This document shows, one piece after another, positions 15,666-31,626 of a stretch of DNA of 32,000 nucleotides. The notes beneath the pieces were generated by a model, which saw only the letters and a program-made list of their open reading frames with translations, made no database searches and was not told the DNA's origin. The translations under genes were made by a program, and so were the position numbers. This DNA is from Pseudodesulfovibrio piezophilus C1TLV30 (GTDB taxonomy: Bacteria > Desulfobacterota > Desulfovibrionia > Desulfovibrionales > Desulfovibrionaceae). Each line of letters opens with the position of its first letter. The first letter of the stretch is position 1. The stretch covers positions 3,452,411 through 3,484,410 of the forward strand of contig NC_020409.1 of assembly GCF_000341895.1 (NCBI RefSeq), read 5' to 3'.

Positions 15666-16717
15666 TTGCGGACTCCCTGAAAGGAGTCCCGAAGGGATTC
15701 TGCGATTATTTTCAAGCCATATTCATTCATATGTCCTGTCCCAGGGGGGCTGTTGAAGAAGCCTCGTGGTAACGTCTTTTTTTGCAGGTACAGTTGAGTA
15801 AATCGTTTTGTCGTATCAATGAATCCCACGCCACTCTCTGTGCAGATGGTGTGAAATCGTTCAACAAGGTCTGCTTTGGTATCTTTGAGTTGAATTCTAC
15901 CATGCTTGAGGGAAGGGACACTTTTGGGGCAATAAATGAAAACAAGAAACCCACTGCTTTGTTGCTTCAGTCTCTGTAAGAGAAAACGCCATCCCTCTTC
16001 GAGGTTGTAGGATTTCGAGTCGGCAGGTGGTCTCTGAGTCGATTGTGGGGCTTGGGTTCTGGTGAGCCTGAGATCCGGCAGTCTCTGCGATGTCAGCAAA
16101 TAATAAAACGGACCGAGGCGAAGCGTTCTGGCAATAGATTTTAAAAACTGTTTCCTCTTTCCAGGGGCTATCTTTTTGTCAGTTAATGCCCATGGAGATG
16201 ATAAAAACTGTCCATGTCCGTTTATTGGGATATTGGGGAGCACGTCGTCCATACCGCTGAGCAGGATGACATGGCCGACTATGCCCTTCAGGGCTTTTTC
16301 ATATCGAGGTATTGCGTAGTAGTAGTCGGCTACCGTTGCACCGCTTCGTCCATATGTGATGCACGCGTATGGAGTTTCGGACGAGATGGCATTGAATTGA
16401 GCTGAGATTTTTTTGTTATCCGGAACTTGTAAGGATTCCGCATGGGAGTCTCCCCACAGGATGAATTTGGGTCTTGCTGACAAGACAAGGGCTTCTTCAT
16501 TCAAGGCAAAACCATGCTGACCATAGTGCGAGTCTGCCCAGCCTTCGCTTCTCCATGTCACAATTGATCCTGGAGTTGGGACATATTCTCCAATGGTTTG
16601 ATCAAACGTTTGGAGTTGAAGACTGTTTTTGAAGAAAAAGACCATGGCCCAGATGATCAGAGTTGACGAGAGTATCCCTATTCCCCAGTGGAAAATGGAA
16701 TTGCTGTTTTTTTTCAT
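15662..16717 (-). CDS. SGNH/GDSL-like periplasmic partner of the MBOAT (AlgJ/AlgX/PatB-like), single N-terminal TM
   Basis: TM anchor IFHWGIGILSSTLIIWAMVFFF. GDS(H) block ILWGDSHAESL. 4-nt overlap with the MBOAT gene. The start is uncertain: ATG 16717 or ATG 16855. Confidence 0.6.
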   Translation of the reverse strand: MKKNSNSIFHWGIGILSSTLIIWAMVFFFKNSLQLQTFDQTIGEYVPTPGSIVTWRSEGWADSHYGQHGFALNEEALVLSARPKFILWGDSHAESLQVPDNKKISAQFNAISSETPYACITYGRSGATVADYYYAIPRYEKALKGIVGHVILLSGMDDVLPNIPINGHGQFLSSPWALTDKKIAPGKRKQFLKSIARTLRLGPFYYLLTSQRLPDLRLTRTQAPQSTQRPPADSKSYNLEEGWRFLLQRLKQQSSGFLVFIYCPKSVPSLKHGRIQLKDTKADLVERFHTICTESGVGFIDTTKRFTQLYLQKKTLPRGFFNSPPGTGHMNEYGLKIIAESLRDSFQGVRK

Positions 16718-16888
16718 GGGTGGATCATCTGTTAATGGATTGAGAGACTCAGCATTTAGTTTGTATTTTCGTAACGTCCTAATAAACTTTTTGAAGTCAC
16801 TCAAGTCAATAAAAAAAGGCGGAATACAGGCTTGAGTGTGGGAGGGGATGTGCATGTTTTCTCACGATTGTCATGAAGGGTTTCTGGC

Positions 16889-17650
16889 ATGCATGTTGCT
16901 TTAACAAAAGAGACTTTTATGGAGCAGCAGTCAGGAACGATTGAGAAAATTGAGGGTGCGATGTTCGATCAAGAGGGTGTGTTGCTGGAGTTTTCACAAT
17001 GCGAGTATGCGGATATGGCTCGTTTGCAAGAAGTTCTTCGAAATAAAAGATATCAGGAAGATATTCCGGATGTCGTTATTTTTCTTGAACATACGGCATG
17101 TATCACAGTTGGCCGCAGCGGAGGATATGAGAATATACTCGCGGACAACGTTGCTTTGAAAAATAACGGGATAGCTGTTCATGAAACTCCCCGAGGGGGA
17201 AATATCACATATCATGGGCCGGGGCAGTTGGTTTGTTATCCGATTCTTTCATTGGAAGGAGAAAAACGGGATCTGCATCTCTATGCTCGCAATATGGAAG
17301 AGGTCATGATTCGCACAGTGGAGAGCTTTGGTATCCAAGCTGGGCGCAAACCCCAATACCCCGGAGTTTGGGTCGGGGAAAATAAGATCGGCGCAATGGG
17401 GATTGCTGTTCGAAAATGGACCACTATGCACGGTATCGCATTGAATGTATGTCCTGACCTGGACCATTTCTCCTTGATCGTGCCTTGTGGAATTGGTTCC
17501 CATGGTGTCACTTCCATGGCGGAAGTCCTGGGGTCTTCTATTGATATCAAGAGTGTTCGTAGTGAAATGCAAAGGCACTTTTCAGAAATTTTTGAAATCT
17601 CTCTCCATCCCGTTGAGTTGAAAGATCTTATTGAGGAGGAATCGTTGTGA
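16889..17650 (+). CDS. lipB: Lipoyl(octanoyl) transferase LipB
   Basis: VIFLEHTACITVGR.., RGGNITYHGPGQLVCYPIL, KIGAMGIAVRKWTTMHGIALNV. ATG 16919 is an alternative start. Confidence 0.9.
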   Translation: MHVALTKETFMEQQSGTIEKIEGAMFDQEGVLLEFSQCEYADMARLQEVLRNKRYQEDIPDVVIFLEHTACITVGRSGGYENILADNVALKNNGIAVHETPRGGNITYHGPGQLVCYPILSLEGEKRDLHLYARNMEEVMIRTVESFGIQAGRKPQYPGVWVGENKIGAMGIAVRKWTTMHGIALNVCPDLDHFSLIVPCGIGSHGVTSMAEVLGSSIDIKSVRSEMQRHFSEIFEISLHPVELKDLIEEESL

Positions 17651-18507
17651 TAAAACCGCGCTGGCTGGTGCTTCCAGCTCCCGATGCTCATGATATGAAT
17701 CGTATTCAGGATATTTTAGACAAGGGGCAGTTACACTCTGTGTGCGAAAGCGCCCAATGTCCGAATATTGGTGAGTGCTTTGCTCATAAGACCTGCACGT
17801 TCATGATTTTGGGAGATATCTGCACACGTAATTGTGCATTTTGTGCTGTCGCCCATGGTCATCCTCTCAGTCCTGATCCTCAGGAGCCGGGGATGGTAGG
17901 GGAGACAGCCAGGCAGTTGGGGTTGAAGCATGTGGTCGTCACTTCGGTAACTCGGGATGATCTTCCTGATGGTGGTGCGGAACATTTTGTGGCGACAATA
18001 CAAGCCATCAAGCATGAAAATCCGGATGCAACCGTGGAAGTCCTTATTCCTGATTTCGGAGGGCGGCGAGAGCCGCTTGAGAGTGTCCTTTCGGCGATGC
18101 CGGATGTCCTTAACCATAATATTGAAACAGTCCCCCGTCTCTATGATTCAGTTCGACCGGGAGCACGTTATGAGCGTTCCTTGCAGTTGATTAGGAATGT
18201 TTCCAACTCACGTTCCGATGAGCGGATTCTCACGAAATCAGGTCTGATGCTCGGACTCGGCGAAACACAAGAGGAAGTCGTTGCAACAATGGAGGATCTG
18301 CTTCAGGTCGGGTGTCGTATTGTGACTCTTGGACAATATCTTTGTCCCTCGTCTCGTCATCATCCTGTGGTCGAGTATGTTCATCCTGACACATTCAACC
18401 GATTGGCTGATATTGGCAAACAGCTTGGGTTCAAACAAGTGGTGGCAGGGCCGCTGGTGCGGAGTTCCTATCATGCTGCCGAAAGTTTCAAAGAGTTGCG
18501 GATGTGA
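17647..18507 (+). CDS. lipA: Lipoyl synthase LipA (radical SAM)
   Basis: KPRWL N-terminus. CESAQCPNIGEC (Cx4Cx5C) and CTRNCAFC (Cx3Cx2C) motifs. C-terminal RSSYHA. GTG start overlaps the lipB stop. Confidence 0.95.
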   Translation: MIKPRWLVLPAPDAHDMNRIQDILDKGQLHSVCESAQCPNIGECFAHKTCTFMILGDICTRNCAFCAVAHGHPLSPDPQEPGMVGETARQLGLKHVVVTSVTRDDLPDGGAEHFVATIQAIKHENPDATVEVLIPDFGGRREPLESVLSAMPDVLNHNIETVPRLYDSVRPGARYERSLQLIRNVSNSRSDERILTKSGLMLGLGETQEEVVATMEDLLQVGCRIVTLGQYLCPSSRHHPVVEYVHPDTFNRLADIGKQLGFKQVVAGPLVRSSYHAAESFKELRM

Positions 18508-18570: not shown

Positions 18571-19353
18571 ATGCGTGATTTTATCAAGATAACGCTTGTT
18601 GCCAATGCGGGTGTTTTTGTTGAATACGCAGGTCTTGGATTTCTTGTGGACGGTATTCACTCTGAAGGCGGTTCTCCCTTCAGTCCGGTTTCTTCGGTGG
18701 AGCTGGGACATATGCGGGAAGGCTCAGGTTTTTTCAAGAATTTGGATTACCTGCTTTTTACCCATGACCATCCTGACCATTTTTCTCCTCGGCTTGTTGC
18801 GGACCATATAGGGGAACGGCCTGCCAAGGGACTTTTCCTACCGGGTGAAACACGAAGTTCCGCTGACCATGGACGACTCTTTGACCGACTTCAGGAACGT
18901 GGTATCCCTTACTGGGCTGTGGGGCTTGAGCCTGGGAAGACACAGTGTTTTATCCTTGCCGATGATGTTACCCTCACTCTTCTCGGTGCATCACACATGG
19001 GGCCACAGTATGCACGCATTAGGAATACTTGTTTCCTGCTGACAGTGGGTGGGAAAAACCTGTTGTTTACGGGTGATGCTGATCCCGTTGAGCAAGACTT
19101 TGGTTTTGCATTGAAAGAAGAGGTGGTGGATGTGGCATTCGTGAATCCTCTTTTTTATCACCACCCCAAAGGGCAACACGTCATCAATGAGGTCTTTCGG
19201 CCCAGCACCCTTGTTATTTATCACATGCCTTTCATTCATACCGACACCACACCGCTTCTTTCCATGGTTAACCGGGACATTCAACGTCACGGACGGCCTG
19301 ATATGCCGGTCCATGTCTTTAATCAGGAGCAACAGTCTCTTCGGCTGTCGTGA
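18571..19353 (+). CDS. MBL-fold metallo-hydrolase
   Basis: HxHxDH motif (THDHPDH), a downstream GDAD and a His-containing C-terminal half. Substrate unknown. Confidence 0.7.
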   Translation: MRDFIKITLVANAGVFVEYAGLGFLVDGIHSEGGSPFSPVSSVELGHMREGSGFFKNLDYLLFTHDHPDHFSPRLVADHIGERPAKGLFLPGETRSSADHGRLFDRLQERGIPYWAVGLEPGKTQCFILADDVTLTLLGASHMGPQYARIRNTCFLLTVGGKNLLFTGDADPVEQDFGFALKEEVVDVAFVNPLFYHHPKGQHVINEVFRPSTLVIYHMPFIHTDTTPLLSMVNRDIQRHGRPDMPVHVFNQEQQSLRLS

Positions 19354-19608: not shown

Positions 19609-19684
19609 CTGTATGTTTTATGCCTTTGCACCCTCAATAGTTGCGGTCAAAATGTTTTATAACAGAGAAAAAAGAGAGGATTCA

Positions 19685-20761
19685 ATGAGCGAAACAATGC
19701 GAGCTGCCGTGTGGCATGGAAAGCAGGATGTCCGTGTTGAGACCGTTCCGGTTCCCCCTTCTCCATCAGCCGGTTGGGTCAAGATCAAAGTTGATTGGTG
19801 TGGTATCTGCGGTTCGGATTTGCATGAGTTCGTCGCCGGTCCGGTTTTCATTCCGACTGATGCTCCGCATCCCCTGACAGGAAAGCAGGGCAGTGTCATC
19901 CTCGGTCATGAGTTTACGGGAACAGTCGTGGAAGTTGGCGAGGGCGTCACCAATGTGAGTGTCGGTGATTTTGTGGCACCTGATGCCTGTCAGCATTGTG
20001 GCGAATGTATCACATGTCGTGCCGGGCGGTACAACGTCTGCGAGAAGCTGGCCTTCACAGGGCTGCATAATGATGGTGCTTTTGCAAAATATGTGAATAT
20101 ACCCAGCGAACTCTGCTATATATTACCAAATGGTATTTCCTCTGAGGCGGGGGCGTTGATCGAACCGCTGGCAACAGGGTACAAAGCCGTGCGTGAAGCT
20201 GGCTCCATTCTTGGAGAGACGGTTGTCATAATCGGGGCAGGGACCATTGGTTTAGGGACTCTGATGGCAGCCAGAGCGGCAGGCGCGGGTATGATAATCG
20301 TGCTGGAAATGTCAACCGTCCGGGCTGCAAAGGCCAAGGAATGTGGGGCTGATGTTGTTCTTAATCCGAATGAATGCGACCCTGTTGCTGAAATAAAAGC
20401 TTTGACCCAAGGGTCAGGTGCGGATGTTTCTTTCGAATGTGTCGGCAACAAATTCACCGGACCACTTGCCGTGGATGTGCTTCGTAATGCAGGGCGGGCG
20501 ATCATTGTCGGTATTTTTGAAGAATCCAGTTCATTCAATTTTTTCAGTTTAAGTGGGACAGACAAACGCGTTATAGGCACCTTGGCTTATACTTTGAGCG
20601 ATTTTCAGGGTGTTTCGACCCTGCTGGCGAACGGGCAGCTCAAGGCTGAACCCATGATTACCGGTCGGATACATCTTGAAGACATTGTGGAAAAAGGCTT
20701 TTGGGAATTGATCAATAACAAGGATGAGAACATCAAGATTATCGTCAGTCCAGGAGACTAG
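19685..20761 (+). CDS. Zn-dependent MDR alcohol dehydrogenase, 2,3-butanediol dehydrogenase / acetoin reductase type
   Basis: MRAAVWHGKQDVRVETVP..CGICGSDLHE..GHEFTG..CQHCGECITCRAG and Rossmann motif GAGTIGLG. SD AGAGAGGA before ATG 19685. The ORF-track extension to 19502 covers the promoter and was rejected. Confidence 0.8.
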   Translation: MSETMRAAVWHGKQDVRVETVPVPPSPSAGWVKIKVDWCGICGSDLHEFVAGPVFIPTDAPHPLTGKQGSVILGHEFTGTVVEVGEGVTNVSVGDFVAPDACQHCGECITCRAGRYNVCEKLAFTGLHNDGAFAKYVNIPSELCYILPNGISSEAGALIEPLATGYKAVREAGSILGETVVIIGAGTIGLGTLMAARAAGAGMIIVLEMSTVRAAKAKECGADVVLNPNECDPVAEIKALTQGSGADVSFECVGNKFTGPLAVDVLRNAGRAIIVGIFEESSSFNFFSLSGTDKRVIGTLAYTLSDFQGVSTLLANGQLKAEPMITGRIHLEDIVEKGFWELINNKDENIKIIVSPGD

Positions 20762-20940: not shown

Positions 20941-23013
20941 CTAGATTTGGATACGGTGTCGTTCCATTTTTGCATACAGGGTATTGCGCCCGATTCCCAG
21001 AGCTTTAGCCGTTTTACTAATGTTGCACGCATGAAAATTCAATGCCTCACGGATTGCGTCTTCCTCTCTCTTTTTGAGTTGGAATTCTTTGCTTGAGTTC
21101 GTATGCTTTGTGTTGATTCGGTGTCGGGCTTTGTCCAGAATGTGATGCGGGAGATTCTCCTCCCGGAGCCATGCATCGGAGAGGTTATTGATTGCATATT
21201 CTATGCAATTGACGAGTTCTCGAACATTTCCTGGCCATGAGTACGCCATGAAGGTCTTCGCCACTTCAGGGAGCATTCCTTCACAATGAATGCCAAATTC
21301 CGTGCAAAGACGGTTCAGATGATATTCGGCCAGGAGGACAATGTCATTTCCTCGTTCATGAAGGGAAGGGAGGGTGATTCCAACCACATTCAGGCGATAA
21401 AACAGGTCCTCTCGAAATTGGTTTTGTCTCACAAGTTCACGCAGATTCTTGTTGGTTGCCGCAATGATTTTCACATCCACGGACTGTGGAGTTGTGCCGC
21501 CCACAGGGACAACGGTCCTTTCTTCCAGCGCCCTCAGGAGACTGACTTGTTGCGAAAGTGGCATTTCAGAAATCTCATCCAGAAACAGGACTCCTTTGTC
21601 TGCCTGTTGGAATTTCCCTATACGGCCTTTTCTGGATGCTCCTGTAAACGATCCCCCGCAATACCCGAAGAGTTCACTTTGCACCAACTCTTCAGGGAAC
21701 GCGCCGCAATTAATTGCAATGAAGGGGTGCTGGGATCGTGGTCCGGCTTGGTGTATGCCACGGGCGAAGAGCTCCTTTCCGGTCCCTGATTCTCCATACA
21801 GGAGAACGGTTGATGGCGTCTTTGCCGCTTTGGCAGCCTGAAGAATTGATTGAGACATGGATCGGCTTGAATACAATATATGCTCAAATCCTTCCGGGGT
21901 GGTTTCAGAGGGGGGGATTGTTTCGAAGCATTCCTTTTTGGCAGGGACTGCGAATTGATGCGTGGTTTGTTTTTCGCAAATACTGACGATGGTATCCAGA
22001 TGGGTGCCGGTGAGACTGAAAACATTCAAGGCTCGCACGAATAAATCCGGGTTTATCCGACAGGGGATGACCGTCGGTTCATGTACTGAGGCATTTTTCG
22101 TCTGAGCTATGAAATCATCGTAATGAAAAAATTCCTCGGCCTGGCGACCACGGAGTGTCCCCCATGGAGTTCCGATCAATGCCTCGGCTGCACTGTTGGC
22201 ACTGAGGATTTTGCCTGATTTATCCAAGGAAAGAATGCCCGTCATTACGGAGTTGAACATTGAAGAAAAGAGCGTTCCCAGCTGACCTTCCAGTTCCGAG
22301 CAATAGAGGCGGCAGAGATGCTGCTCCAAGGCCCGTGCCGCTTGAAGAACAAGGTTCAGATTCTTAGAGTGATCCATGTTTGAAGGACCGGAAATATCAA
22401 AACATCCCCATATGCTGCCGTGTGGGTCCAGAATTGGGGCTGCTGTACAGCTCCAACTGTGATGGCTACGGCAGAAATGTTCTTCACCGAAAACCTGCAT
22501 GGGACGTCCTGTTGCCAAGGCCGTCCCTATGGCATTGGTTCCCACGCTTTCTTCTGCCCAATTGGCTCCTGGGCCAAAGTTCAACTTGTCAGCCTGCCGC
22601 AGGGTCTTCAGATCACCGCATGTCCGGGCCACACGGCCTTTGGCATTCGTGAATGTCATGAGCATTCCTTTGCCGCGGATCGCTTCATATGCCGTATTTT
22701 CGACATCGCCACAGATCTTTCCCAGTGTTGAGGTAAACGGCTCCAACTCTGTCATAGGTTTGAAATCCCAGCAATTTCTCGGGCCAGGATCAATGCCCAT
22801 TTTTTTACACCTGCCCCAGGAATCGATGATGTTCTCGTTCAGGCAACTGAGGTTGACCTGTCTCCCTTCCACAAAACGTTTCCACTGAGAATAGTTGACC
22901 TGCGAACCTCGCTGGCCGCGCAGGGGAGACCATGGTGAATGGGATGAAGGGGTTGCCTCAATATGGGACGCGCTGATTTCGAAGCCGTCATCGTTTCTAA
23001 GGAGTAAATGCAT
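20941..23013 (-). CDS. acoR: AcoR-like sigma-54-dependent transcriptional activator (N-terminal GAF-like sensor, PAS, AAA+, Fis HTH)
   Basis: GESGTGKELFARGIH, GSFTGA (intact F-T), LFLDEISEM, FREDLFYRLNV, WPGNVRELVN, HTH NISKTAKALGIGRNTLYAKM. ATG 23013 has SD GGAG 8 nt upstream. It is divergent from the aco operon. Confidence 0.85.
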   Translation of the reverse strand: MHLLLRNDDGFEISASHIEATPSSHSPWSPLRGQRGSQVNYSQWKRFVEGRQVNLSCLNENIIDSWGRCKKMGIDPGPRNCWDFKPMTELEPFTSTLGKICGDVENTAYEAIRGKGMLMTFTNAKGRVARTCGDLKTLRQADKLNFGPGANWAEESVGTNAIGTALATGRPMQVFGEEHFCRSHHSWSCTAAPILDPHGSIWGCFDISGPSNMDHSKNLNLVLQAARALEQHLCRLYCSELEGQLGTLFSSMFNSVMTGILSLDKSGKILSANSAAEALIGTPWGTLRGRQAEEFFHYDDFIAQTKNASVHEPTVIPCRINPDLFVRALNVFSLTGTHLDTIVSICEKQTTHQFAVPAKKECFETIPPSETTPEGFEHILYSSRSMSQSILQAAKAAKTPSTVLLYGESGTGKELFARGIHQAGPRSQHPFIAINCGAFPEELVQSELFGYCGGSFTGASRKGRIGKFQQADKGVLFLDEISEMPLSQQVSLLRALEERTVVPVGGTTPQSVDVKIIAATNKNLRELVRQNQFREDLFYRLNVVGITLPSLHERGNDIVLLAEYHLNRLCTEFGIHCEGMLPEVAKTFMAYSWPGNVRELVNCIEYAINNLSDAWLREENLPHHILDKARHRINTKHTNSSKEFQLKKREEDAIREALNFHACNISKTAKALGIGRNTLYAKMERHRIQI

Positions 23014-23263: not shown

Positions 23264-23279
23264 TGGCATAGCCATTGCT
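23264..23279 (+). promoter_or_regulatory. Sigma-54 (-24/-12) promoter of the aco operon
   Basis: TGGCATagccaTTGCT is a near-perfect match to TGGCAC-N5-TTGCW, 42 nt upstream of the ATG at 23321. Confidence 0.8.
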
Positions 23280-23320: not shown

Positions 23321-24673
23321 ATGGCTCAACAAGTGATCATGCCCAAATGGGGCTTGACCATGAAAGAAGGAAAAGTTGTTCGCTGGCTTAAAGGTGAGGG
23401 TGAATCGGTTGATGCCGGTGAGCCTTTATTTGAAGTGGAAACGGACAAAATCACGAACTCGGTGGAAGCCCCTGCCAGTGGTGTCTTATCCCAAATCATA
23501 GTCCCTGAAGGTGAAACTGCCGAGGTCCAGGCTGTTTTGGCAGTTATTGCCGCGCCAGGAGAAAACCCTGACATAATACCAAGTGGATCGACGGCAACCG
23601 ACAACGTTGAATCTTCCGGCGATGCAGTGGCTGGCGAACCTGCCGTTGCTTCATCTCAGGCATCGGTTGAAGGCGGTGATTTTGTTCCGGCCATGCCTGC
23701 TGCTCGCAAATTGGCGAAGGAATTGAACGTTGCCCTGTCCACGGTTGTCGGAACCGGACCTCATGGAACAATTGTGATGAAAGATGTTCAGGCATCGGCT
23801 GACAGTGCTTTTGCCGGGATTAACGCCAGTGCCAAGGCAATTGAATTCGCCCGTAAAAATGGCATTGATCTCGGTCAGGTCTCGGGGACCGGTGATGACG
23901 GTCGAATTACCAAAGCCGACATCCTGCGTGCAATGAATCCGGTTTCCGATCAACAGGTATCATCCAATCAGCCTGTCATTGCTCAGGATACCATCGTGCC
24001 TATGGACGGTGTCCGCAAGCTTATTGGTGACAATATGCAGGCCAGCTTGACCAATGCGGCGCAGCTTTCCGTGTTCGTCGAAATTGACGCCACCGAAATG
24101 GTTTCCTTGCGCGCGGCGATTCTTGAACGGAACAAGCGCAACGCAGAATACAAGCTCTCATACAATGACATCGTTTCGTATGCTGTGTGTCGAGCTCTCA
24201 AGCGACATCCGATTATGAATTCGACCTTGCAGGACGATGGCATTCATCTGCACCAAAGTGTCAATCTTGGTATTGCTGTGGCCCTGCCAAACGGGCTTAT
24301 TGTGCCGAATATCAAGAATGCCGGAAGCTTGACGTTGGAGGAACTCAAGACAGAGATCCGGGATGTCGCAGGTCGGTCTCGGACCGGCGGTCTGAATATG
24401 GATGAAATATCCGGCGGCACCTTTACCATCAGTAATGTCAGCATGCTTGGTGTGGATGGTTTTACCCCCATTCTCAATCCTCCAGAGACAGGCATACTCG
24501 GTGTCGGGCGTATTGTTGAGAAACCGGCAGTCAAGGATGGCGAAATTCAGATTCGGCAAATGATGACCCTTTCTCTGACATTCAATCACATGACTACGGA
24601 TGGTGCGCCTGCCATGTCTTTCCTGCGCGAGTTGGGGGACATGCTGGAAACTCCGGGTCTGATGACATTGTAG
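23321..24673 (+). CDS. acoC: Dihydrolipoamide acetyltransferase (E2) of an acetoin-dehydrogenase-type complex; one lipoyl domain, two PSBD domains, catalytic domain
   Basis: Lipoyl-lysine motif VETDKIT (K codon 23447-23449). Two E3-binding-like segments. Catalytic ..LSLTFNHMTTDGAPAMSFL (H..DG). SD AGGAGG 7 nt before ATG 23321. Confidence 0.85.
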   Translation: MAQQVIMPKWGLTMKEGKVVRWLKGEGESVDAGEPLFEVETDKITNSVEAPASGVLSQIIVPEGETAEVQAVLAVIAAPGENPDIIPSGSTATDNVESSGDAVAGEPAVASSQASVEGGDFVPAMPAARKLAKELNVALSTVVGTGPHGTIVMKDVQASADSAFAGINASAKAIEFARKNGIDLGQVSGTGDDGRITKADILRAMNPVSDQQVSSNQPVIAQDTIVPMDGVRKLIGDNMQASLTNAAQLSVFVEIDATEMVSLRAAILERNKRNAEYKLSYNDIVSYAVCRALKRHPIMNSTLQDDGIHLHQSVNLGIAVALPNGLIVPNIKNAGSLTLEELKTEIRDVAGRSRTGGLNMDEISGGTFTISNVSMLGVDGFTPILNPPETGILGVGRIVEKPAVKDGEIQIRQMMTLSLTFNHMTTDGAPAMSFLRELGDMLETPGLMTL

Positions 24674-24680
24674 GTTCGTT

Positions 24681-25121
24681 ATGGCGCGGAAAAGATTTGC
24701 TGTTGAACTCGGTTATGCAGCCGATTTGCATGGTGAAGACATGACCAAGGCCGTGGTGCGAGCTGTTCGTGATGCTGTGTCCCGGATTTGTCTCTGTGGT
24801 CTTGTGGAAATATGTGGTCGTGATCGGTTTCAAGGCGTCTTTGTCCATGCTGATATCGCTGTTCCCCAGCCGGAACAGGTTGACCATTCGGCCGTGCTTG
24901 CCGCCATCCCCATTGGTGAAACTTCATTGAACGTGACTGTCGGCGGCATGAGTGTCCCCGGGATGGAAGTTCCCTGCTTTGCCCCTGGTGTCAGCAACAT
25001 AGTTGTTGCGTGCGCCGCGCTGACTGTTTCCATTGAGACGGACATGGCAAGTGAGGCTGATGAGGACTCGGAAAACAGGTGGATCGGATGTGCCGTGAAG
25101 CCGAATAACCCAGAGGAGTAA
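24681..25121 (+). CDS. Small conserved hypothetical protein (possibly Lin0512-family-like), embedded between E2 and E1-alpha
   Basis: 146 aa. N-terminus FAVELGYAADLHGEDMTKAVVRAVRDAV resembles my memory of the Lin0512_fam N-terminus (uncertain). Tightly packed: 7 nt after the acoC stop and 5 nt before the acoA ATG. Acidic tail. Confidence 0.55.
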   Translation: MARKRFAVELGYAADLHGEDMTKAVVRAVRDAVSRICLCGLVEICGRDRFQGVFVHADIAVPQPEQVDHSAVLAAIPIGETSLNVTVGGMSVPGMEVPCFAPGVSNIVVACAALTVSIETDMASEADEDSENRWIGCAVKPNNPEE

Positions 25122-25126
25122 ACACA

Positions 25127-26086
25127 ATGGCTCTGAGCAAGAAGACATTGATCAATATGTATGAAACCATGAACAGGATTCGTCTGTTCGAACTGAGACT
25201 GCAGGAACTTTTCGCAGCAAGCGAAATTCCCGGTTTCGTCCATCTTTATCTCGGCGAGGAAGCGGTTGCCACAGGAGCCTGTGCCGCGCTTACCGATGCC
25301 GACATGATTACCAGTACACATCGCGGGCATGGGCATCTTTTGGCAAAAGGTGGAGATTTGAAGCTCATGATGGCTGAAATATTCGGGCGGAAAACCGGCT
25401 ACTGCAAAGGCAAAGGCGGTTCCATGCACATTGCCGATTTGGATCTCGGTATTCTCGGGGCCAACGGTATTGTGGGAGGTGGTGGCCCTCTTGCCGCAGG
25501 AGCGGCTCTGGCAGCCAAATACAGAAAAAGCAAAGATGTCGCCATGTGCTTTTTCGGTGATGGTGCCTCCAATCAGGGAACAACCCAGGAGTCCCTGAAC
25601 ATGGCGAGCGCCTGGAAGCTGCCTCTGGTCTTCATCAATGAAAATAATGGGTACGGTATTTCCTGCCCCCAATGCAAATCCATGGCTGTCGTGGATATTG
25701 CGGATCGCGCAGCTGCATATGATATGCCCGGCGTAGTGGTTGACGGAAACGACGTGCTCGCTGTGCATGAAGCCGTTTCCGAGGCCGTCAAACGTGCGCG
25801 TCGCGGAGAAGGCCCGTCATTGGTTGAGTGCAAAACATATCGCTGGCGTGGTCACTTTGAAGGGGATGCCTGCACATACCGTTGCGATGAAGAGCTGAAA
25901 GAGTGGAAAGCCAAAGACCCCATTCCTCGTTTCGAGGCCAAATTGATAGAAAAGAAGACACTGACTCAGAGTGAAGCGGATACAATAAAAGAACGCATTG
26001 CTCAGGATGTTGATGAAGCTGTGACGTACGCCAAGGAAAGTCCGATGCCGCCTGTCAGTGCATTGATGGATGACGTGTACGCCTAA
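25127..26086 (+). CDS. acoA: Acetoin:acceptor oxidoreductase / 2-oxoacid dehydrogenase E1 alpha subunit (TPP-binding)
   Basis: LYLGEEAVATG, TSTHRGHGH, TPP motif GDGASNQG..(27 aa)..NENNGYG, YRWRGHFEGD. SD GAGGAG. Confidence 0.9.
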   Translation: MALSKKTLINMYETMNRIRLFELRLQELFAASEIPGFVHLYLGEEAVATGACAALTDADMITSTHRGHGHLLAKGGDLKLMMAEIFGRKTGYCKGKGGSMHIADLDLGILGANGIVGGGGPLAAGAALAAKYRKSKDVAMCFFGDGASNQGTTQESLNMASAWKLPLVFINENNGYGISCPQCKSMAVVDIADRAAAYDMPGVVVDGNDVLAVHEAVSEAVKRARRGEGPSLVECKTYRWRGHFEGDACTYRCDEELKEWKAKDPIPRFEAKLIEKKTLTQSEADTIKERIAQDVDEAVTYAKESPMPPVSALMDDVYA

Positions 26087-26130
26087 GTCGGCTGCGGTTT
26101 TTACGAATCATAAATCCAACGGAGTGAATA

Positions 26131-27102
26131 ATGTCCGAAAAAACATATCTTCAGGCTCTCAACGAAGCATTGAGCCAGGAAATGGAGCGCGATGAGAATG
26201 TCTTCATCATAGGTGAAGACGTGGGGCAATTTGGTGGTTGTTTTGGGGTCACCCAGGGGCTTTTTGACACGTTCGGGAGTGACCGTGTCATGGATACGCC
26301 AATTACAGAAAGCGCAATTGTCGGCGCAGCCACAGGTGCGGCCGCATGCGGTCTTCGCCCTGTAGCGGAGTTGATGTTTGTGGATTTCATCGGTGTTTCT
26401 ATGGATCAGCTCTTTAATCAGGCTGCGAAAATGCGTTACATGTTCGGTGGTAAAACCACGGTTCCCATGACGTTGCGTGCACCTCAAGGCGCAGGTATCG
26501 GTGCTGCTGCCCAGCATTCTCAGTGCCTGGAATCCTGGTTCATGAATATTCCGGGACTCAAAGTCGTTATCCCATCGACCCCTTACGATGCCAAGGGGCT
26601 GTTGATAAGTGCAATTCGCGATGACAACCCGGTTGTCTTTCTTGAGCACAAGATGTTGTATGGTGTCAGTGGAGAAGTGCCGGACGAGAGTTATACCATC
26701 GAGATAGGCAAGGCTGACATCAAGCGTGAGGGCAGTGATGTGACTATCGTTGCGACGTCGCAGATGGTCTATGCGGCGCTTGAGGCAGCTGAAAAACTCA
26801 AAGCCGACGGTATTGATGCCGAAGTCGTCGACCCACGGAGCTTGTTACCACTGGACAAGGAGACGATTTTTGACTCAGTCAGAAAGACGCATGCCTTGGT
26901 TGTTGTCCATGAGGCGGTCCAGTTCGCTGGTCCGGGAGCAGAAATAGCTGCCATGGCGGCAGAAGAAATTCTTGAGTATCTGGATGCTCCCATCAAGCGT
27001 GTTGGTGCTCCATTCTGCCCGGTTCCCTTCTCGCCTCCTCTTGAGCAGCATTATATCCCCGGTGCAGAGAATATCATCGAGGCCGTCAAGAGTATTCGTT
27101 AA
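26131..27102 (+). CDS. acoB: Acetoin dehydrogenase E1 beta subunit
   Basis: YLQALNEALSQEMERDENVFIIGEDVG.., DTPITESAIVGAATGAA, transketolase-C-like C-terminal half. SD GGAG. Confidence 0.9.
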   Translation: MSEKTYLQALNEALSQEMERDENVFIIGEDVGQFGGCFGVTQGLFDTFGSDRVMDTPITESAIVGAATGAAACGLRPVAELMFVDFIGVSMDQLFNQAAKMRYMFGGKTTVPMTLRAPQGAGIGAAAQHSQCLESWFMNIPGLKVVIPSTPYDAKGLLISAIRDDNPVVFLEHKMLYGVSGEVPDESYTIEIGKADIKREGSDVTIVATSQMVYAALEAAEKLKADGIDAEVVDPRSLLPLDKETIFDSVRKTHALVVVHEAVQFAGPGAEIAAMAAEEILEYLDAPIKRVGAPFCPVPFSPPLEQHYIPGAENIIEAVKSIR

Positions 27103-27117
27103 ACAAACTTTGGTTGA

Positions 27118-27145
27118 GAGGGGAACGGCTTTTGCCGTTCCCCTC
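27118..27145 (+). other. Intra-operon 12-bp perfect stem-loop between acoB and the acoX-like gene
   Basis: GAGGGGAACGGC-tttt-GCCGTTCCCCTC. No downstream U-tract. Immediately followed by SD GAGGAG (27148-27153). Confidence 0.8.
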
Positions 27146-27169
27146 GTGAGGAGAGATGAGGGCGTATCA

Positions 27170-28165
27170 TTGAGTATTGCAGCAATCTTGGCTAATCCAG
27201 CTTCCGGTAAAGATATTCGTCGGTTAGTGGCTCATGGGAGTGTCTTCGACAATCAGGAGAAAGTTCGTATGGTGCGAAGGCTTATTCTGGGCCTTGAACG
27301 TGCCGGAGTCACAAAAATTTTATATATGCCTGATGCCTATGCGATCATCCCTCGTGCCTTGAATTCTATTTCGCCGTCCATTCCTGTCGAAGCAGTAGAA
27401 ATGCCCATACGGAACACTGATGCCGACACCTCCCTCGCAGCAGAGCTTATGGAAACGCTCGGTGCACAGAGCCTTGTTGTTCTCGGGGGTGACGGGACCA
27501 GCAGAGTGGCCTGCAAAGGGACGCTGAACGTCCCCATCCTGCCACTTTCCACTGGGACAAATAATGTTTTTCCTGTCATGTCTGAGGCTACGGTGGCGGG
27601 GTTGGCCGCAGGACTGGTTGCCTGCGGCCGCCTCCCCCGGCAGGAATGTTGTTATCAGTCTTGTATGCTTGATATTGTTTTTGGTGAGACGGTCATTGAT
27701 ATGGCTTTGGTTGATGCCGCAGTCTATGATGACGTTTTTTTCGCATCAAGAGCGGTTTGGGACATGCACAAGGTTCCGCAACTTTTTCTGACACGATGTA
27801 ATCCTACCTCCATTGGGTTGTCTGCCATAGGCGGGCAGCTGCGTGACATCCGTCCTCAAGAGCCGAGGGGATTGGCATTAAAGCTGGGAAAACCGGCTTC
27901 GCTCACTGTTACCGCGTCCATTGCGCCAGGGATGTTCTCCGATATTCCCATCCGTGAAATCGAAGACATGCCCCCCGGAGTTGTTTTCCCTATCGCATCC
28001 AGCACAGGTTTGATAGCGGTGGATGGAGAACGAGAGATTGAAATTTCTCAAGATTCCAATGCCGGTATTCGATTGAATACCGGCGGCCCTCTGGTTATCG
28101 ATGTGGAAAAAACCATGGCCTTGGCCAGAGAACAGGCCTGCTTCGTGACAAACACATATTCATAG
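27170..28165 (+). CDS. acoX: AcoX-like ATP-NAD kinase / diacylglycerol-kinase-fold protein
   Basis: N-terminus (TTG) SIAAILANPASGKDIRRLV and the GGDGT signature (VVLGGDGTSRV). TTG 27170 chosen; GTG 27146 is possible. The ORF-track start 26972 overlaps acoB and the hairpin and was rejected. Confidence 0.7.
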   Translation: MSIAAILANPASGKDIRRLVAHGSVFDNQEKVRMVRRLILGLERAGVTKILYMPDAYAIIPRALNSISPSIPVEAVEMPIRNTDADTSLAAELMETLGAQSLVVLGGDGTSRVACKGTLNVPILPLSTGTNNVFPVMSEATVAGLAAGLVACGRLPRQECCYQSCMLDIVFGETVIDMALVDAAVYDDVFFASRAVWDMHKVPQLFLTRCNPTSIGLSAIGGQLRDIRPQEPRGLALKLGKPASLTVTASIAPGMFSDIPIREIEDMPPGVVFPIASSTGLIAVDGEREIEISQDSNAGIRLNTGGPLVIDVEKTMALAREQACFVTNTYS

Positions 28166-28174
28166 GGAGAAAAC

Positions 28175-28483
28175 ATGAGTCATCCATTGAAAGCTGCTTT
28201 TATTTTTCTTGCTCCAGGAGGAGATCCGAAAGTTCATAGAAATTGGGTTATTACAGAAGGAGTTGAATTACTCTCCATTGCCGTGAGTGATTATGGACAG
28301 GCTGAGACTCTGGCTCGTGAGTTGGTTGAGCAAGAAGAAATAGCAGCCATAGAACTCTGTGGAGGATTTGGAGCCGCAGGAACGGCGCGGGTTGCGGCGG
28401 CAGTGAATGTTCCTGTCGGAGCTGTCCGTTTCGATATTCATCCCGGTCTGAATAATCTCAGTGGGGATACGCTCTTTGGTTAA
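28175..28483 (+). CDS. Conserved hypothetical 102-aa protein, last gene of the aco operon
   Basis: ATG lies 9 nt after the acoX-like stop, with SD GGGAGA. It contains IELCGGFGAAG. No family assigned with confidence. Confidence 0.55.
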   Translation: MSHPLKAAFIFLAPGGDPKVHRNWVITEGVELLSIAVSDYGQAETLARELVEQEEIAAIELCGGFGAAGTARVAAAVNVPVGAVRFDIHPGLNNLSGDTLFG

Positions 28484-28542: not shown

Positions 28543-28932
28543 TCAGCCGTCAGCTAGAATGTGATTCGGAGTGACAAAGCAGGTGAATGTACCGGTGAAG
28601 ACCTGTTCGTCTTCACAGAAAACATCGACGTGTACGGTGTGTTTTCGCTCGTGTGGAGTCGTGTCGTGCGCTTTTGCGACCAAGGTATTTCCAATGCGGG
28701 AAGGCTTCAGAAATCGTGTTTCAGCAGCACCCAGTACAACATTGGGATGGTTGACTGCGAGCATGGCCGCATAGTCGGCCAGGCCGAATATGAAGCCACC
28801 ATGGATCAGCCCGCTTGAGTCTGCACCCATTTCTTCAGTGCATTCCATGCGCACATGACTTGTCCCGTTCTCCACCATGATCGGTTCGCCGCATAAAGTT
28901 CGATCGATTGTATGATGGGTTTGAATATTCAT
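28543..28932 (-). CDS. PaaI/YbgC-type hotdog-fold thioesterase
   Basis: ..GLIHGGFIFGLADYAAMLAV.. is typical of PaaI-family thioesterases. 129 aa from ATG 28932; the longer ORF-track start 29019 was rejected. Confidence 0.75.
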   Translation of the reverse strand: MNIQTHHTIDRTLCGEPIMVENGTSHVRMECTEEMGADSSGLIHGGFIFGLADYAAMLAVNHPNVVLGAAETRFLKPSRIGNTLVAKAHDTTPHERKHTVHVDVFCEDEQVFTGTFTCFVTPNHILADG

Positions 28933-29030: not shown

Positions 29031-29357
29031 CTAATCAAACAGGTCTTCCAACTCGTCAAAAACATAATGCATGTACATGACCTTCGGTGAGCCTCCCATG
29101 GATATGGCTAACATTGCGGCCTGCATTATTTCTTCCTTGCTCGCGCCATGACTGGCCGCCCCTTGGATGTGGAGCGAGATGCACATCTCGCACTGGGACA
29201 TCATGGAACAGGCAACGTGAATCAGTTCCTGCGTTTTATGATCAATGGGTCCAAATTCGCTGATTTCTTTGGTGAAGGCAAGGTAATTGGGGAACACGTT
29301 GCCAGCACGCTGTGTCATCTTGGCCAAAGTCCCCGCTGCTTTTTCTGCTGCATCCAT
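29031..29357 (-). CDS. Carboxymuconolactone decarboxylase (AhpD-like) family protein
   Basis: 108 aa with the CMD core motif CxxCxxxH (QCEMCISLH). SD AAAGGAG before the ATG. Confidence 0.8.
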   Translation of the reverse strand: MDAAEKAAGTLAKMTQRAGNVFPNYLAFTKEISEFGPIDHKTQELIHVACSMMSQCEMCISLHIQGAASHGASKEEIMQAAMLAISMGGSPKVMYMHYVFDELEDLFD

Positions 29358-29608: not shown

Positions 29609-29695
29609 TGGTGCCGAAGAGAAGACTCGAACTTCCACGGGATTGCTCCCACTAGACCCTGAACCTAGCGTGTCTACCAATTCCACCACTTCGGC
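29609..29695 (-). tRNA. tRNA-Leu (anticodon CAG), class II with a long variable arm and encoded CCA
   Basis: The minus strand reads GCCGAAG-TG-GTGGAATTGGTAGACAC-G-CTAGG-TTCAGGG-TCTAG-TGGGAGCAATCCCGT-GGAAG-TTCGAGT-CTTCT-CTTCGGC-A-CCA. Acceptor, anticodon and T arms all pair. Confidence 0.9.
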
Positions 29696-30003: not shown

Positions 30004-30651
30004 ATGAAAACCATAACCTTGCTCGCACAAAAGGGTGGAACCGGGGAAACGATCCTTTCAATCCATTTGGCAACGGCAGCCGCCAATCGTCGGTACTCTG
30101 TTCTGACAGTCGATATTGATCCCCAGGGCAGTTCTTTTTTTTGGAGTCAACGGCGGCAAAGAGGGTTTCCAGGAGTTGTCAAATACTCGATCCGTGAATT
30201 GAGAAAAAACATGGCAACAATCGCACGTGAGGTCGACTTGATGATTCTCGATACACCTTCGCACTCAAGCAGGGGCGCAGGGGATGTCGTGTCTCTTTTG
30301 GATTTTGTGCTTATTCCGAGTAGGCTCACCATCCATGACTCCGTGAAGCTTGTGTGTGAAAAGGGAAAATCCGGTGCTATTGTCTTGAATTGTTGTCCGC
30401 CGCCAGGTCTATTTGACGAAACCGCTTTGGTGCGCGAGGCTTGCTTGGCTTTGGAAGTCTATAAAATGCCTGTTTCTCCGGTCGCCATTTCACAACGTGC
30501 CGCCTTCAGTCTTGCGCTTATCGACGGTAGGGCCGTAACTGAGTTTGAAAAGAAAGGTAAGGCCGCAGGGGAAATCAAGACATTATGGGGTTGGATAAAA
30601 AAGGAGTTGGCCAATGGTGAGCAGAGCTCAATTAACGTTGTTGCCTGTTGA
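30004..30651 (+). CDS. ParA/MinD-family (small type-Ib-like) ATPase homologue with a mutated P-loop lysine
   Basis: MKTITLLAQKGGTGETIL..VLTVDIDPQGS..MILDTPS. The deviant Walker A reads KGGTGET instead of KGGxGKT (GAA codon at 30046-30048). Confidence 0.75.
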   Translation: MKTITLLAQKGGTGETILSIHLATAAANRRYSVLTVDIDPQGSSFFWSQRRQRGFPGVVKYSIRELRKNMATIAREVDLMILDTPSHSSRGAGDVVSLLDFVLIPSRLTIHDSVKLVCEKGKSGAIVLNCCPPPGLFDETALVREACLALEVYKMPVSPVAISQRAAFSLALIDGRAVTEFEKKGKAAGEIKTLWGWIKKELANGEQSSINVVAC

Positions 30652-30844
30652 TCAAGGCAGGGATAGTCTTCCTCGTAGAACGACTCGAGAGAGTTCCCTG
30701 GTTGGGGGTGCTCAGCGCGGGGACAGTCCTGCGAATGTCGAGCCTACTGTGTCCCGGTTAACTCGGAAGCGGATGTTCAAAACGGGATTGGTCTTGGCGT
30801 TAAGCGTTGTTTCATTGATTTTGTTTCGGAGAAAACTCTTTTGA
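30614..30844 (+). CDS. Possible small membrane-anchored protein overlapping the parA-like 3' end
   Basis: SD AGGAG 7 nt upstream of ATG 30614. 76 aa with a basic, disordered N-terminal part and one C-terminal TM (TGLVLALSVVSLILF). No homology recognised. Confidence 0.4.
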   Translation: MVSRAQLTLLPVDQGRDSLPRRTTRESSLVGGAQRGDSPANVEPTVSRLTRKRMFKTGLVLALSVVSLILFRRKLF

Positions 30845-30975
30845 TAAAGAGATTCCGTGTTCTTCGGTCTTGAATCACTGAAGAAGTGCTGAAAGGTGTC
30901 GGTGTTCTCCATATGTAATGGAATGCGTGTCCTTAAACCTCTGAGTATTTTGCATCTCGGAAATGAGTAGCTGCC

Positions 30976-31626
30976 ATGAAATATTTTGCTCTTCTTTTAG
31001 TGCCCATTCTGGCTATTTCCCTCTGCTCTCAATGCCTTGCGGAAGTGCCTGCCGGTGTTTTTTATAAGGTTATCAAGTCGGAAAGGGTGGAGTCCGGCGT
31101 TTGTGCTCTTGATATCGAGATCAATAAAAAAGTCGATAAGATCGGATTGGCTGGTCTTGCTGACCATTTACGTAACAGGGAACCTGTTGTGTATGAAGAT
31201 ATGTGCATTAATTTTTATCTTGAAGGTGAACATCTTGCCAATGGGGCGTGGGCTGTTGCGCGGTTCTCCCCGGAGCTGAAAGTGAAGGTGCTTGGTCTAT
31301 CGCTTGAAGATGAAAAAAAAATCATGAGCCAATCGCTTCCCATAGCAGGAGAGATCCTCGGGCAATGGCTCAACGAATTGCCTCATCTGGGGTCTTTGTA
31401 TACATTGATTCGTCATGAAAAGACTTATTCTCTTGTGCGTATGTTCCCGGATGGCAGGCGGGATATTTCCAGTTTAATGATGGTCAGTGAGGATGGGAGA
31501 CAGTCGTTTGCTGAAGCGGGAGATGCTCAGGAAGGCAAATCGTATCAAATAACGACTCACGGGGATTTGGAAATCAAGATTGGCGAGAGGGAGCTTATGA
31601 CGTTAAGCCCGGTTCACTCTCATTGA
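30976..31626 (+). CDS. Secreted hypothetical protein
   Basis: Signal peptide MKYFALLLVPILAISLCSQCLAEV. 216 aa. No family recognised. Confidence 0.55.
   Translation: MKYFALLLVPILAISLCSQCLAEVPAGVFYKVIKSERVESGVCALDIEINKKVDKIGLAGLADHLRNREPVVYEDMCINFYLEGEHLANGAWAVARFSPELKVKVLGLSLEDEKKIMSQSLPIAGEILGQWLNELPHLGSLYTLIRHEKTYSLVRMFPDGRRDISSLMMVSEDGRQSFAEAGDAQEGKSYQITTHGDLEIKIGERELMTLSPVHSH

Follow-up and report, generated by a model that had tools for sequence, protein, structure and literature searches.

The 32,000-nucleotide stretch of the Pseudodesulfovibrio piezophilus C1TLV30 genome analyzed here (NC_020409.1, positions 3,452,411 to 3,484,410; hereafter, the window) contains a six-gene operon that encodes, in this order, a dihydrolipoyllysine acetyltransferase (E2), a Lin0512-family protein, the two subunits of a thiamin pyrophosphate (TPP)-dependent E1 component (E1-alpha and E1-beta), AcoX, and a DUF6506 protein. 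Its best explanation, which we regard as likely, is a Desulfobacterota version of the acetoin/2,3-butanediol catabolic regulon, with the operon encoding a putative acetoin dehydrogenase system, so assigned by homology and genomic context. The operon, its gene order, and the absence of a gene for dihydrolipoamide dehydrogenase (E3 or Lpd) are ordinary for this lineage. What is new is the identification of Lin0512 and DUF6506 as fixed partners of E1 and AcoX, the conservation of an intercistronic hairpin, and a complementarity between Lpd and an AhpD-like protein in the gene neighborhoods. P. (Desulfovibrio) piezophilus is a strictly anaerobic deep-sea sulfate reducer (PMC3559428); that the host is a strict anaerobe had been surmised in an earlier reading of this DNA made from the sequence alone (hereafter, the original prediction). 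The Lin0512 protein encoded in the window shows 100% identity to the P. piezophilus protein. The DNA of the window is also present on three JGI metagenome contigs.

A conserved six-gene operon of the acetoin dehydrogenase type

The six open reading frames (ORFs) lie on the plus strand at the coordinates given by the original prediction, and the aco-type operon that it proposed is borne out (Table 1). The details on which it drew can all be read in the sequence, namely, the gaps of 7 and 5 nucleotides (nt) that flank the ORF of 146 amino acids (aa), the acidic tail of the encoded protein, and the GGDGT and IELCGGFG motifs. Domains were assigned by Pfam and NCBIfam profile searches. E2 consists of a lipoyl domain, two tandem E3_binding/PSBD stretches, and a 2-oxoacid_dh catalytic domain, in which the motif NHMTTDG keeps the catalytic His and the Asp at position +4. 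E1-alpha and E1-beta are 51-56% identical to the subunits encoded in annotated clusters of the classical aco type and in a Pelobacter-type cluster; the best solved structure for E1-alpha, that of human pyruvate dehydrogenase (PDH) E1-alpha, reaches only 213 bits.

Scanning one genome of each species with an alignment of Lin0512 sequences yielded 80 loci, onto which the window proteins were mapped. Enough downstream sequence was available for 59 loci. In 55 of them, E1-alpha and E1-beta come directly after Lin0512; AcoX lies downstream of E1-beta in 55, and DUF6506 comes after AcoX in 45. Of the 45 loci with about 10 kb of visible sequence to either side, 30, from Desulfovibrionaceae, Desulfomicrobium, Desulfobulbus, and Desulfobacteraceae, show the full order E2, Lin0512, E1-alpha, E1-beta, AcoX, DUF6506, and the relatives from Firmicutes and Synergistota show the order Lin0512, E1-alpha, E1-beta, AcoX, E2. 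Thus, the arrangement is a lineage norm rather than an oddity of one genome: the original prediction was right that the order is unusual but overstated the case in calling the operon non-canonical, and the two small ORFs, the conservation of which it had left to be checked, are conserved. In four loci (L033, L045, L053, and L066), a second, more divergent E1-alpha/E1-beta pair lies near the main cluster. Several Geobacteraceae contigs stop immediately downstream of AcoX, as might be expected if the assemblies broke at E1 duplicates.

The window shares with the classical acoR-acoXABC systems (Cupriavidus necator/Alcaligenes eutrophus, Pseudomonas putida, and plasmids of Burkholderia sp. RPE67 and Paracoccus denitrificans) a sigma-54 promoter and AcoR (PMC10107126). 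Further likenesses are the location of AcoX beside E1, the sequences of E1-alpha and E1-beta (51-54% identical), the linked genes for butanediol dehydrogenase and for lipoate ligase or lipoyl synthase, and an operon without E3. The gene order differs, being X-A-B-C in the classical clusters and C-Lin0512-A-B-X-DUF6506 in the window. The E2 encoded in the window is a canonical 2-oxoacid_dh acyltransferase with two PSBDs, unlike classical AcoC, the NCBIfam model of which (PRK14875) aligns to residues 1-158 only. Finally, none of the 10 classical acoX clusters examined contains Lin0512 or DUF6506; these clusters are plasmid-borne and come from nine genera of Alphaproteobacteria, Betaproteobacteria, and haloarchaea.

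The acoABCSL acetoin dehydrogenase enzyme system of Pelobacter carbinolicus was reportedly described by Oppermann and Steinbuchel in 1994. P. carbinolicus resembles P. piezophilus in being a strict anaerobe of the Desulfobacterota with lipoyl synthase and acoX genes in the cluster and with AcoR regulators (PMC3543383). It differs in gene order and in having its own E3 gene (acoL) and thiamin biosynthesis genes in the cluster, neither of which is found in the window. In a Pelobacter-type locus from our set (L041), Lin0512 and AcoX belong to the cluster, and DUF6506 is encoded nearby on the opposite strand. Genes for ThiC, the thiamin pyrimidine synthase, lie inside two related aco clusters (L018, 14150-15514; L041, 7222-8967); they recall the thiamin genes around acoX of P. 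carbinolicus and hint at a theme of cofactor supply.

Within the same genus, a preprint already presents the orthologous locus of P. mercurii ND132 (DND132_3102-3107) as a putative acetoin dehydrogenase system; it lists the regulator, E2, E1-alpha, E1-beta, and AcoX-like genes and does not discuss the Lin0512 gene (DND132_3104), the DUF6506 gene (DND132_3108), the missing E3, or the AhpD-like neighbor (bioRxiv 10.1101/2022.10.17.512643). The DUF6506 protein of ND132 is 79% identical to that of the window.

Two putative sigma-54-dependent units and an intercistronic hairpin

The operon is preceded by a divergent gene for an AcoR-like sigma-54-dependent activator, which is kept upstream of E2 in the relatives. 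Exact matches to the sigma-54 consensus TGGCAY-N5-TTGCW number two in the 32 kb, against 0.19 expected, with one before each of two units, the E2 operon and a block of four genes, lplA-lipA-MBL-ADH, which encode a lipoate-protein ligase (Lpl), a lipoyl synthase-like protein (LipA), a metallo-beta-lactamase-fold protein (MBL), and a Zn-dependent alcohol dehydrogenase (ADH). In about 38 related loci, a site equivalent to the E2 promoter precedes the first gene of the cluster, and the lplA-side element also precedes lplA in a Maridesulfovibrio locus (L005). Because the second exact consensus precedes the lplA-lipA-MBL-ADH block, we assign this block to the AcoR regulon. This consensus overlaps the annotated lplA start, so that the real start may lie near the ATG at 16919. 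The lipoyl synthase-like gene adjoins Lpl in most related loci; the Zn-dependent ADH shares 37% identity with the protein annotated as 2,3-butanediol dehydrogenase in P. denitrificans and is cluster-linked in many loci. Scans of the window for consensus sigma-70 promoters and terminators gave results at background level.

The gap between E1-beta and AcoX contains a GC hairpin. At this position, 18 of 20 relatives also have a strong hairpin, which differs in sequence and in some of them is followed by a T-run. The hairpin is probably an intra-operon attenuator or an mRNA-stabilizing element and suggests lower production of AcoX and DUF6506 than of the structural subunits. Because the hairpin precedes it, we place the start of the AcoX-like gene at the conserved TTG at 27170, the most likely start (331 aa); both this start and its ribosome-binding site are kept in the relatives.

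Table 1. Features of the window around the putative acetoin dehydrogenase operon (positions are those of the window)
Feature	Position	Strand	Evidence
Second sigma-54 -24/-12 consensus TGGCATGCATGTTGCT, before the lplA-lipA-MBL-ADH block	16885..16900	+	Exact consensus match
Lipoate-protein ligase, LplA/B catalytic domain	16889..17650	+	PF21948, E = 2e-48
Radical-SAM protein, lipoyl synthase-like	17647..18507	+	PF04055; 52% identity to annotated Mycetohabitans lipA
Metallo-beta-lactamase-fold protein	18571..19353	+	PF12706; recurs close to the cluster in relatives
Zn-dependent alcohol dehydrogenase, 382 aa, probably 2,3-butanediol/acetoin dehydrogenase	19613..20761	+	ADH_N and ADH_zinc_N
AcoR-like sigma-54-dependent activator (GAF, PAS, AAA+, HTH_8), divergent from the operon	20941..23013	-	Pfam, gene call
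Sigma-54 promoter TGGCATAGCCATTGCT, 42 nt upstream of the E2 ATG	23264..23279	+	TGGCAT-N5-TTGCT
E2 dihydrolipoyllysine acetyltransferase, AcoC type, canonical catalytic domain, two PSBDs, motif NHMTTDG	23321..24673	+	PF00364, PF02817 (2 stretches), PF00198
Lin0512-family protein, 146 aa	24681..25121	+	PF09585, 107 bits; TIGR02058, 64.7 bits; PDB 3c8l, E = 9e-22
E1-alpha (AcoA), TPP-dependent	25127..26086	+	PF00676, E = 1e-94; 51-55% identity to classical aco E1-alpha
E1-beta (AcoB)	26131..27102	+	Transket_pyr and Transketolase_C (PF02779, PF02780); 52-56% identity to classical AcoB
Intercistronic GC hairpin, E1-beta/AcoX gap	27118..27145	+	12-bp stem, TTTT loop
AcoX, NAD-kinase fold, GGDGT motif	27170..28165	+	PF01513, 33.3 bits (cutoff 25.5); full-length AcoX homology
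DUF6506 protein, 102 aa, last operon gene, 9 nt after AcoX	28175..28483	+	PF20116, 103 bits
Hotdog-fold thioesterase, PaaI-like (PaaI/FapR-like), convergent with the operon	28543..28932	-	4HBT and TIGR02286-like matches
AhpD-like CMD-family protein, 108 aa, CEMCISLH (CxxCxxxH)	29031..29357	-	PF02627, 57 bits; TIGR00778, 47.4 (cutoff 27.8)
tRNA-Leu(CAG)	29609-29695	-	

The missing E3 and the AhpD-like neighbor

As the original prediction stated, no E3 is encoded anywhere in the 32 kb: no Pyr_redox_2 domain was detected in the non-nested ORFs of at least 100 aa, and a six-frame tblastn search of the window with an E. coli Lpd query returned nothing better than E = 0.4. Neither is there an lpd gene just outside the window in the same transcription unit, because the operon starts at the sigma-54 promoter and ends at DUF6506, with convergent genes next; a metagenome contig that reaches about 1.1 kb beyond the right end of the window contains no lpd. 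The original prediction treated the reoxidation of dihydrolipoyl-E2 in a probable strict anaerobe as an open question, but anaerobiosis itself poses no problem, given that E3 chemistry uses NAD+ rather than O2. The acoL gene is present in P. carbinolicus, which is also strictly anaerobic (PMC3543383). Nor is an operon without E3 a puzzle in itself, because classical acoXABC clusters also come without it: 9 of the 10 examined have no Lpd within 9 kb. The acoXABC-bdhA genes of P. putida function in E. coli without an aco-specific E3 (PMC10943186). Most likely, an Lpd encoded in another part of the genome would reoxidize the dihydrolipoyl arm, as in the organisms with classical acoXABC.

Next to the operon, on the opposite strand, the window encodes a small AhpD-like protein of the CMD family, with a CxxCxxxH motif. 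The gene for a hotdog-fold thioesterase is paired with the CMD gene, and the pair is conserved beside the cluster in Desulfovibrionaceae. If dihydrolipoyl-E2 is handled in an alternative way at all, this CxxC protein is a better candidate than the three proteins put forward in the original prediction (Lin0512, AcoX, and DUF6506), because the AhpD of Mycobacterium tuberculosis exchanges electrons with the dihydrolipoyl arm of DlaT. In that relay, electrons pass from Lpd via DlaT (E2) to AhpD and on to AhpC (PMC12028322). Like M. tuberculosis, the window combines an AhpD-fold CxxCxxxH protein with an E2. Unlike in the window, Lpd is present in M. tuberculosis and the electrons run from NADH to AhpD; moreover, no AhpC was seen in the window, where the link between the AhpD-like protein and E2 is suggested by gene-neighborhood complementarity only.

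Hence an alternative to an Lpd encoded elsewhere, unlikely in our estimate but with several observations in its favor, under which the AhpD-like protein, in Lpd-less clusters, would take electrons from dihydrolipoyl-E2 by thiol-disulfide exchange. It could either stand in for a flavoprotein E3 or connect E2 with a further redox partner, for example, a peroxiredoxin, a thioredoxin-type carrier, or a thiol carrier linked to sulfate reduction. Besides the M. tuberculosis precedent, this alternative draws on a strict complementarity with cluster-encoded Lpd around the Lin0512-type clusters. Of the 43 loci that could be seen for 3 kb or more beyond either end of the cluster, 11 encode Lpd only, 28 encode CMD only, 4 encode neither, and none encodes both; profile hidden Markov models built from the loci found CMD in 36 and Lpd in 23, again with no overlap. 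The pattern does not reflect a single clade split because at least five independent Lpd/CMD switches are needed on a neighbor-joining tree of E1-alpha/beta. The CxxCxxxH motif is present in all 36 cluster-linked CMD copies. In a Syntrophomonadaceae locus (L079), CMD lies between E2 and Lpl-LipA, the slot held by Lpd in other loci; in Paracoccus, CMD is inside the acoXABC operon; and in Desulfomicrobium-type loci, a sigma-54-like site precedes CMD.

Against such a role stands, first, the window itself, in which CMD is encoded on the strand opposite to the operon and a search upstream of it gave no sigma-54 site, the region being occupied by a tRNA-Leu gene and its terminator. Furthermore, CMD need not replace E3, because Paracoccus, which is expected to have a housekeeping Lpd, nevertheless carries CMD in its aco operon, and most classical E3-less clusters have neither gene. 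A catabolic flux would require a stoichiometric downstream acceptor, and none has been identified. The complementarity was established within 10 kb on either side and not for whole genomes, and a naive Fisher test (P = 2e-7) overstates its significance because the loci are phylogenetically related.

In Desulfovibrionaceae (24 loci), the catalytic motif of the E2 encoded by the first gene reads NHM(T/V/P)TDG in place of DHRxxDG, and the Lpd-adjacent second E2 in those loci retains DHR. The NHM variant was considered as a mark of E3-less systems and ruled out: it is a clade trait of Desulfovibrionaceae that occurs in Lpd-type and CMD-type clusters alike.

The substrate of the complex

The assignment of the cluster to acetoin/2,3-butanediol is based on the sigma-54/AcoR control, the linked Zn-dependent ADH, the short-chain dehydrogenases/reductases (SDRs) in related loci, and the lipoylation genes. 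A complex that does not act on acetoin, being instead a pyruvate, other 2-oxoacid, or alpha-hydroxyketone dehydrogenase that merely resembles aco, appears quite improbable. Such an enzyme would fit with the top NCBIfam matches, which are to the PDH E1-alpha and E1-beta models, with E1-beta passing the PRK09212 subfamily cutoff. It would also fit with E2 being a canonical acyltransferase, unlike the alpha/beta-hydrolase AcoC of Proteobacteria, and with the lack of acetoin growth data in the literature searched. Acetoin is nonetheless favored by AcoX, the AcoR-like sigma-54 activator, the linked Zn-ADH/SDR of the butanediol dehydrogenase type, and the 51-56% identity to AcoA and AcoB. The use of PFOR for pyruvate by Desulfovibrionaceae also counts against the pyruvate option.

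Lin0512, AcoX, and DUF6506

The original prediction presented the 146-aa, AcoX-like, and 102-aa proteins as unassigned. Their function is indeed not known, but Pfam and TIGRFAM searches placed all three in families, and two of these were already named in Pfam (Lin0512_fam, PF09585, and DUF6506, PF20116). We found no mention of Lin0512, DUF6506, TIGR02058, PF09585, or PF20116 in a literature search.

The Lin0512 protein matches PF09585 (E = 7e-31, 107 bits against a cutoff of 23.4) and TIGR02058 (64.7 bits against 56.85). Its predicted model aligns to the structure 3c8l with a TM-score of 0.71-0.86 and adopts a chorismate-mutase/RidA-like alpha/beta fold. An invariant Cys37-x-Cys39 is present; the C-terminal acidic tail is predicted to be disordered and is missing in Maridesulfovibrio. 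The aco-linked Lin0512 proteins share an invariant Ser-Arg-x-Cys-Leu-Cys-Gly, with Ala-Leu-Pro at the corresponding residues of the crystallized cyanobacterial 3c8l.

The DUF6506 protein (PF20116, E = 1e-29, 103.2 bits against a cutoff of 27), for which 611 relatives were found, is modeled with a pLDDT of 92.7 as a small alpha/beta domain with one invariant Cys. A fold search with this model gave no match at E <= 0.001, the best being riboflavin synthase with a TM-score of 0.46. Sequence searches of the PDB with DUF6506 and AcoX yielded chance-level matches only, and a match of DUF6506 to the glycine-cleavage H-protein (E = 0.25) was dismissed as chance.

The AcoX translation reads VVLGGDGTS, keeping the kinase-type GGDGT, and aligns to "acetoin catabolism protein X" of the acoR-acoXABC clusters of Burkholderia sp. 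RPE67 and P. denitrificans over 96-99% of the length, with 34-36% identity (E of about 1e-46). By this alignment, the protein is a true AcoX homolog (ortholog). AcoX has been tied to aco clusters since at least 1991, according to a reference cited in PMC10943186. In agreement with the original prediction, the literature searched gives no function for it (PMC10107126, PMC10943186).

From their linkage, we infer that Lin0512, AcoX, and DUF6506 may be accessory or activation factors of E1/E2. The original prediction offered the three as an alternative reoxidation or regulatory module; reoxidation is unlikely, whereas a regulatory or maturation role is still plausible. At least 11 related loci hold all three genes together with Lpd. 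Among the relatives with Lpd beside the accessory genes, some have AcoX, DUF6506, SDR, E2', Lpd, Lpl-LipA (for example, Desulfovibrio desulfuricans L026; L018, L021, L023, L024, and L029) and others E2, Lpd, Lpl, LipA, Lin0512, E1-alpha, E1-beta, AcoX, DUF6506 (L044, L049, L057, and others), and the Lpd was verified by Pfam (Pyr_redox_2 and Pyr_redox_dim) in L018 and L026. Because all three genes are kept in clusters with a genuine Lpd and because their folds are not those of disulfide oxidoreductases, they are not expected to substitute for E3. AcoX is also found in aerobes, in which an Lpd is to be expected, and E. coli has an Lpd of its own. In the latter host, the P. putida AcoX is nevertheless critical for acetoin dehydrogenase activity (PMC10943186). 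That the three proteins reoxidize dihydrolipoyl-E2 in place of E3 is accordingly a most remote prospect: the tight coupling of their conserved genes to E1/E2, the Cys-x-Cys of the aco-linked Lin0512 subfamily, the nucleotide-binding fold of AcoX, and the lack of E3 in the window speak for it, and, besides the coexistence with Lpd and the need for AcoX in E. coli, the failure to find either a flavin or a disulfide-reductase fold and the single conserved Cys of DUF6506 speak against it.

Flanking regions

Immediately upstream of the lplA block, on the minus strand (14268-16855), a gene for a membrane acyltransferase of the MBOAT family precedes a 397-aa ORF without a Pfam match. Farther upstream lie the genes for an HdrD-like CCG/4Fe-4S protein (118-1353) and for a second sigma-54 activator, of the PAS type (12580-13980). 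On the other side, one metagenome contig (L002) ends at about position 29624 of the window; beyond tRNA-Leu, the region 30004-31626 contains a ParA-like gene and genes without family matches and may be the boundary of a strain-variable island.

A working model and its implications

In the model that we favor, the AcoR-like sigma-54 activator would switch on two units, lplA-lipA-MBL-ADH, supplying lipoylation enzymes and a butanediol/acetoin dehydrogenase, and E2-Lin0512-E1-alpha-E1-beta-hairpin-AcoX-DUF6506. By homology, E1-alpha/beta with TPP would cleave acetoin into acetaldehyde and an acetyl group on the lipoyl arm of E2, and E2 would transfer the acetyl group to CoA; the dihydrolipoyl arm would then be reoxidized by an Lpd encoded elsewhere in the genome. 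AcoX, Lin0512, and DUF6506, of which Lin0512 and DUF6506 are lineage-specific, would assist or activate E1/E2 and be required at lower levels than the structural subunits. Differential expression of AcoX and DUF6506 fits with the conserved hairpin before AcoX.

Several points weigh against this model or parts of it. With regard to E3, a search with the closest aco-linked Lpd (from L018) returned no Pseudodesulfovibrio or Maridesulfovibrio sequence among the best 120 matches (at least 61% identity), a result that rules out only a close aco-type Lpd and is uninformative on other Lpd types. A housekeeping Lpd cannot be assumed in the family, because the glycine cleavage cluster of D. desulfuricans G11 is described as consisting of P-alpha, P-beta, H, and T only, with no L-protein; a literature search on Lpd or glycine cleavage in P. 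piezophilus or ND132 turned up nothing usable. In addition, lplA-lipA belongs to the regulon of the window but lpd does not, whereas relatives keep E2, Lpd, Lpl, and LipA together. With regard to the substrate, E1-alpha scores slightly under the NCBIfam PDH E1-alpha cutoff, no acetoin-specific model exists, the literature searched contains no report of growth of these organisms on acetoin, and P. mercurii ND132 is stated to be "not tested for acetoin degradation" (bioRxiv 10.1101/2022.10.17.512643). The roles of AcoX, Lin0512, and DUF6506 are drawn from linkage only.

A bolder view, to which we give a slim chance, is that in many Desulfobacterota and some Firmicutes with Lpd-less clusters, the AhpD-like neighbor is the physiological oxidant of dihydrolipoyl-E2, with AcoX/DUF6506 and Lin0512 serving as activation factors of E1/E2. 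If so, a complex of the 2-oxoacid dehydrogenase type would run without a flavoprotein E3, and a thiol-disulfide relay would receive its electrons.

Acetoin and 2,3-butanediol rank among the major products of fermentation; how sulfate reducers oxidize them anaerobically has, to our knowledge, been little studied. In the putative acetoin/2,3-butanediol regulon described here, the position of Lin0512 before E1-alpha, that of DUF6506 behind AcoX, and the hairpin that separates the two parts of the operon provide concrete handles on what AcoX does. The either/or relationship between Lpd and the AhpD-like protein bears on how the lipoyl arm is recycled in organisms that possibly have no dedicated E3.

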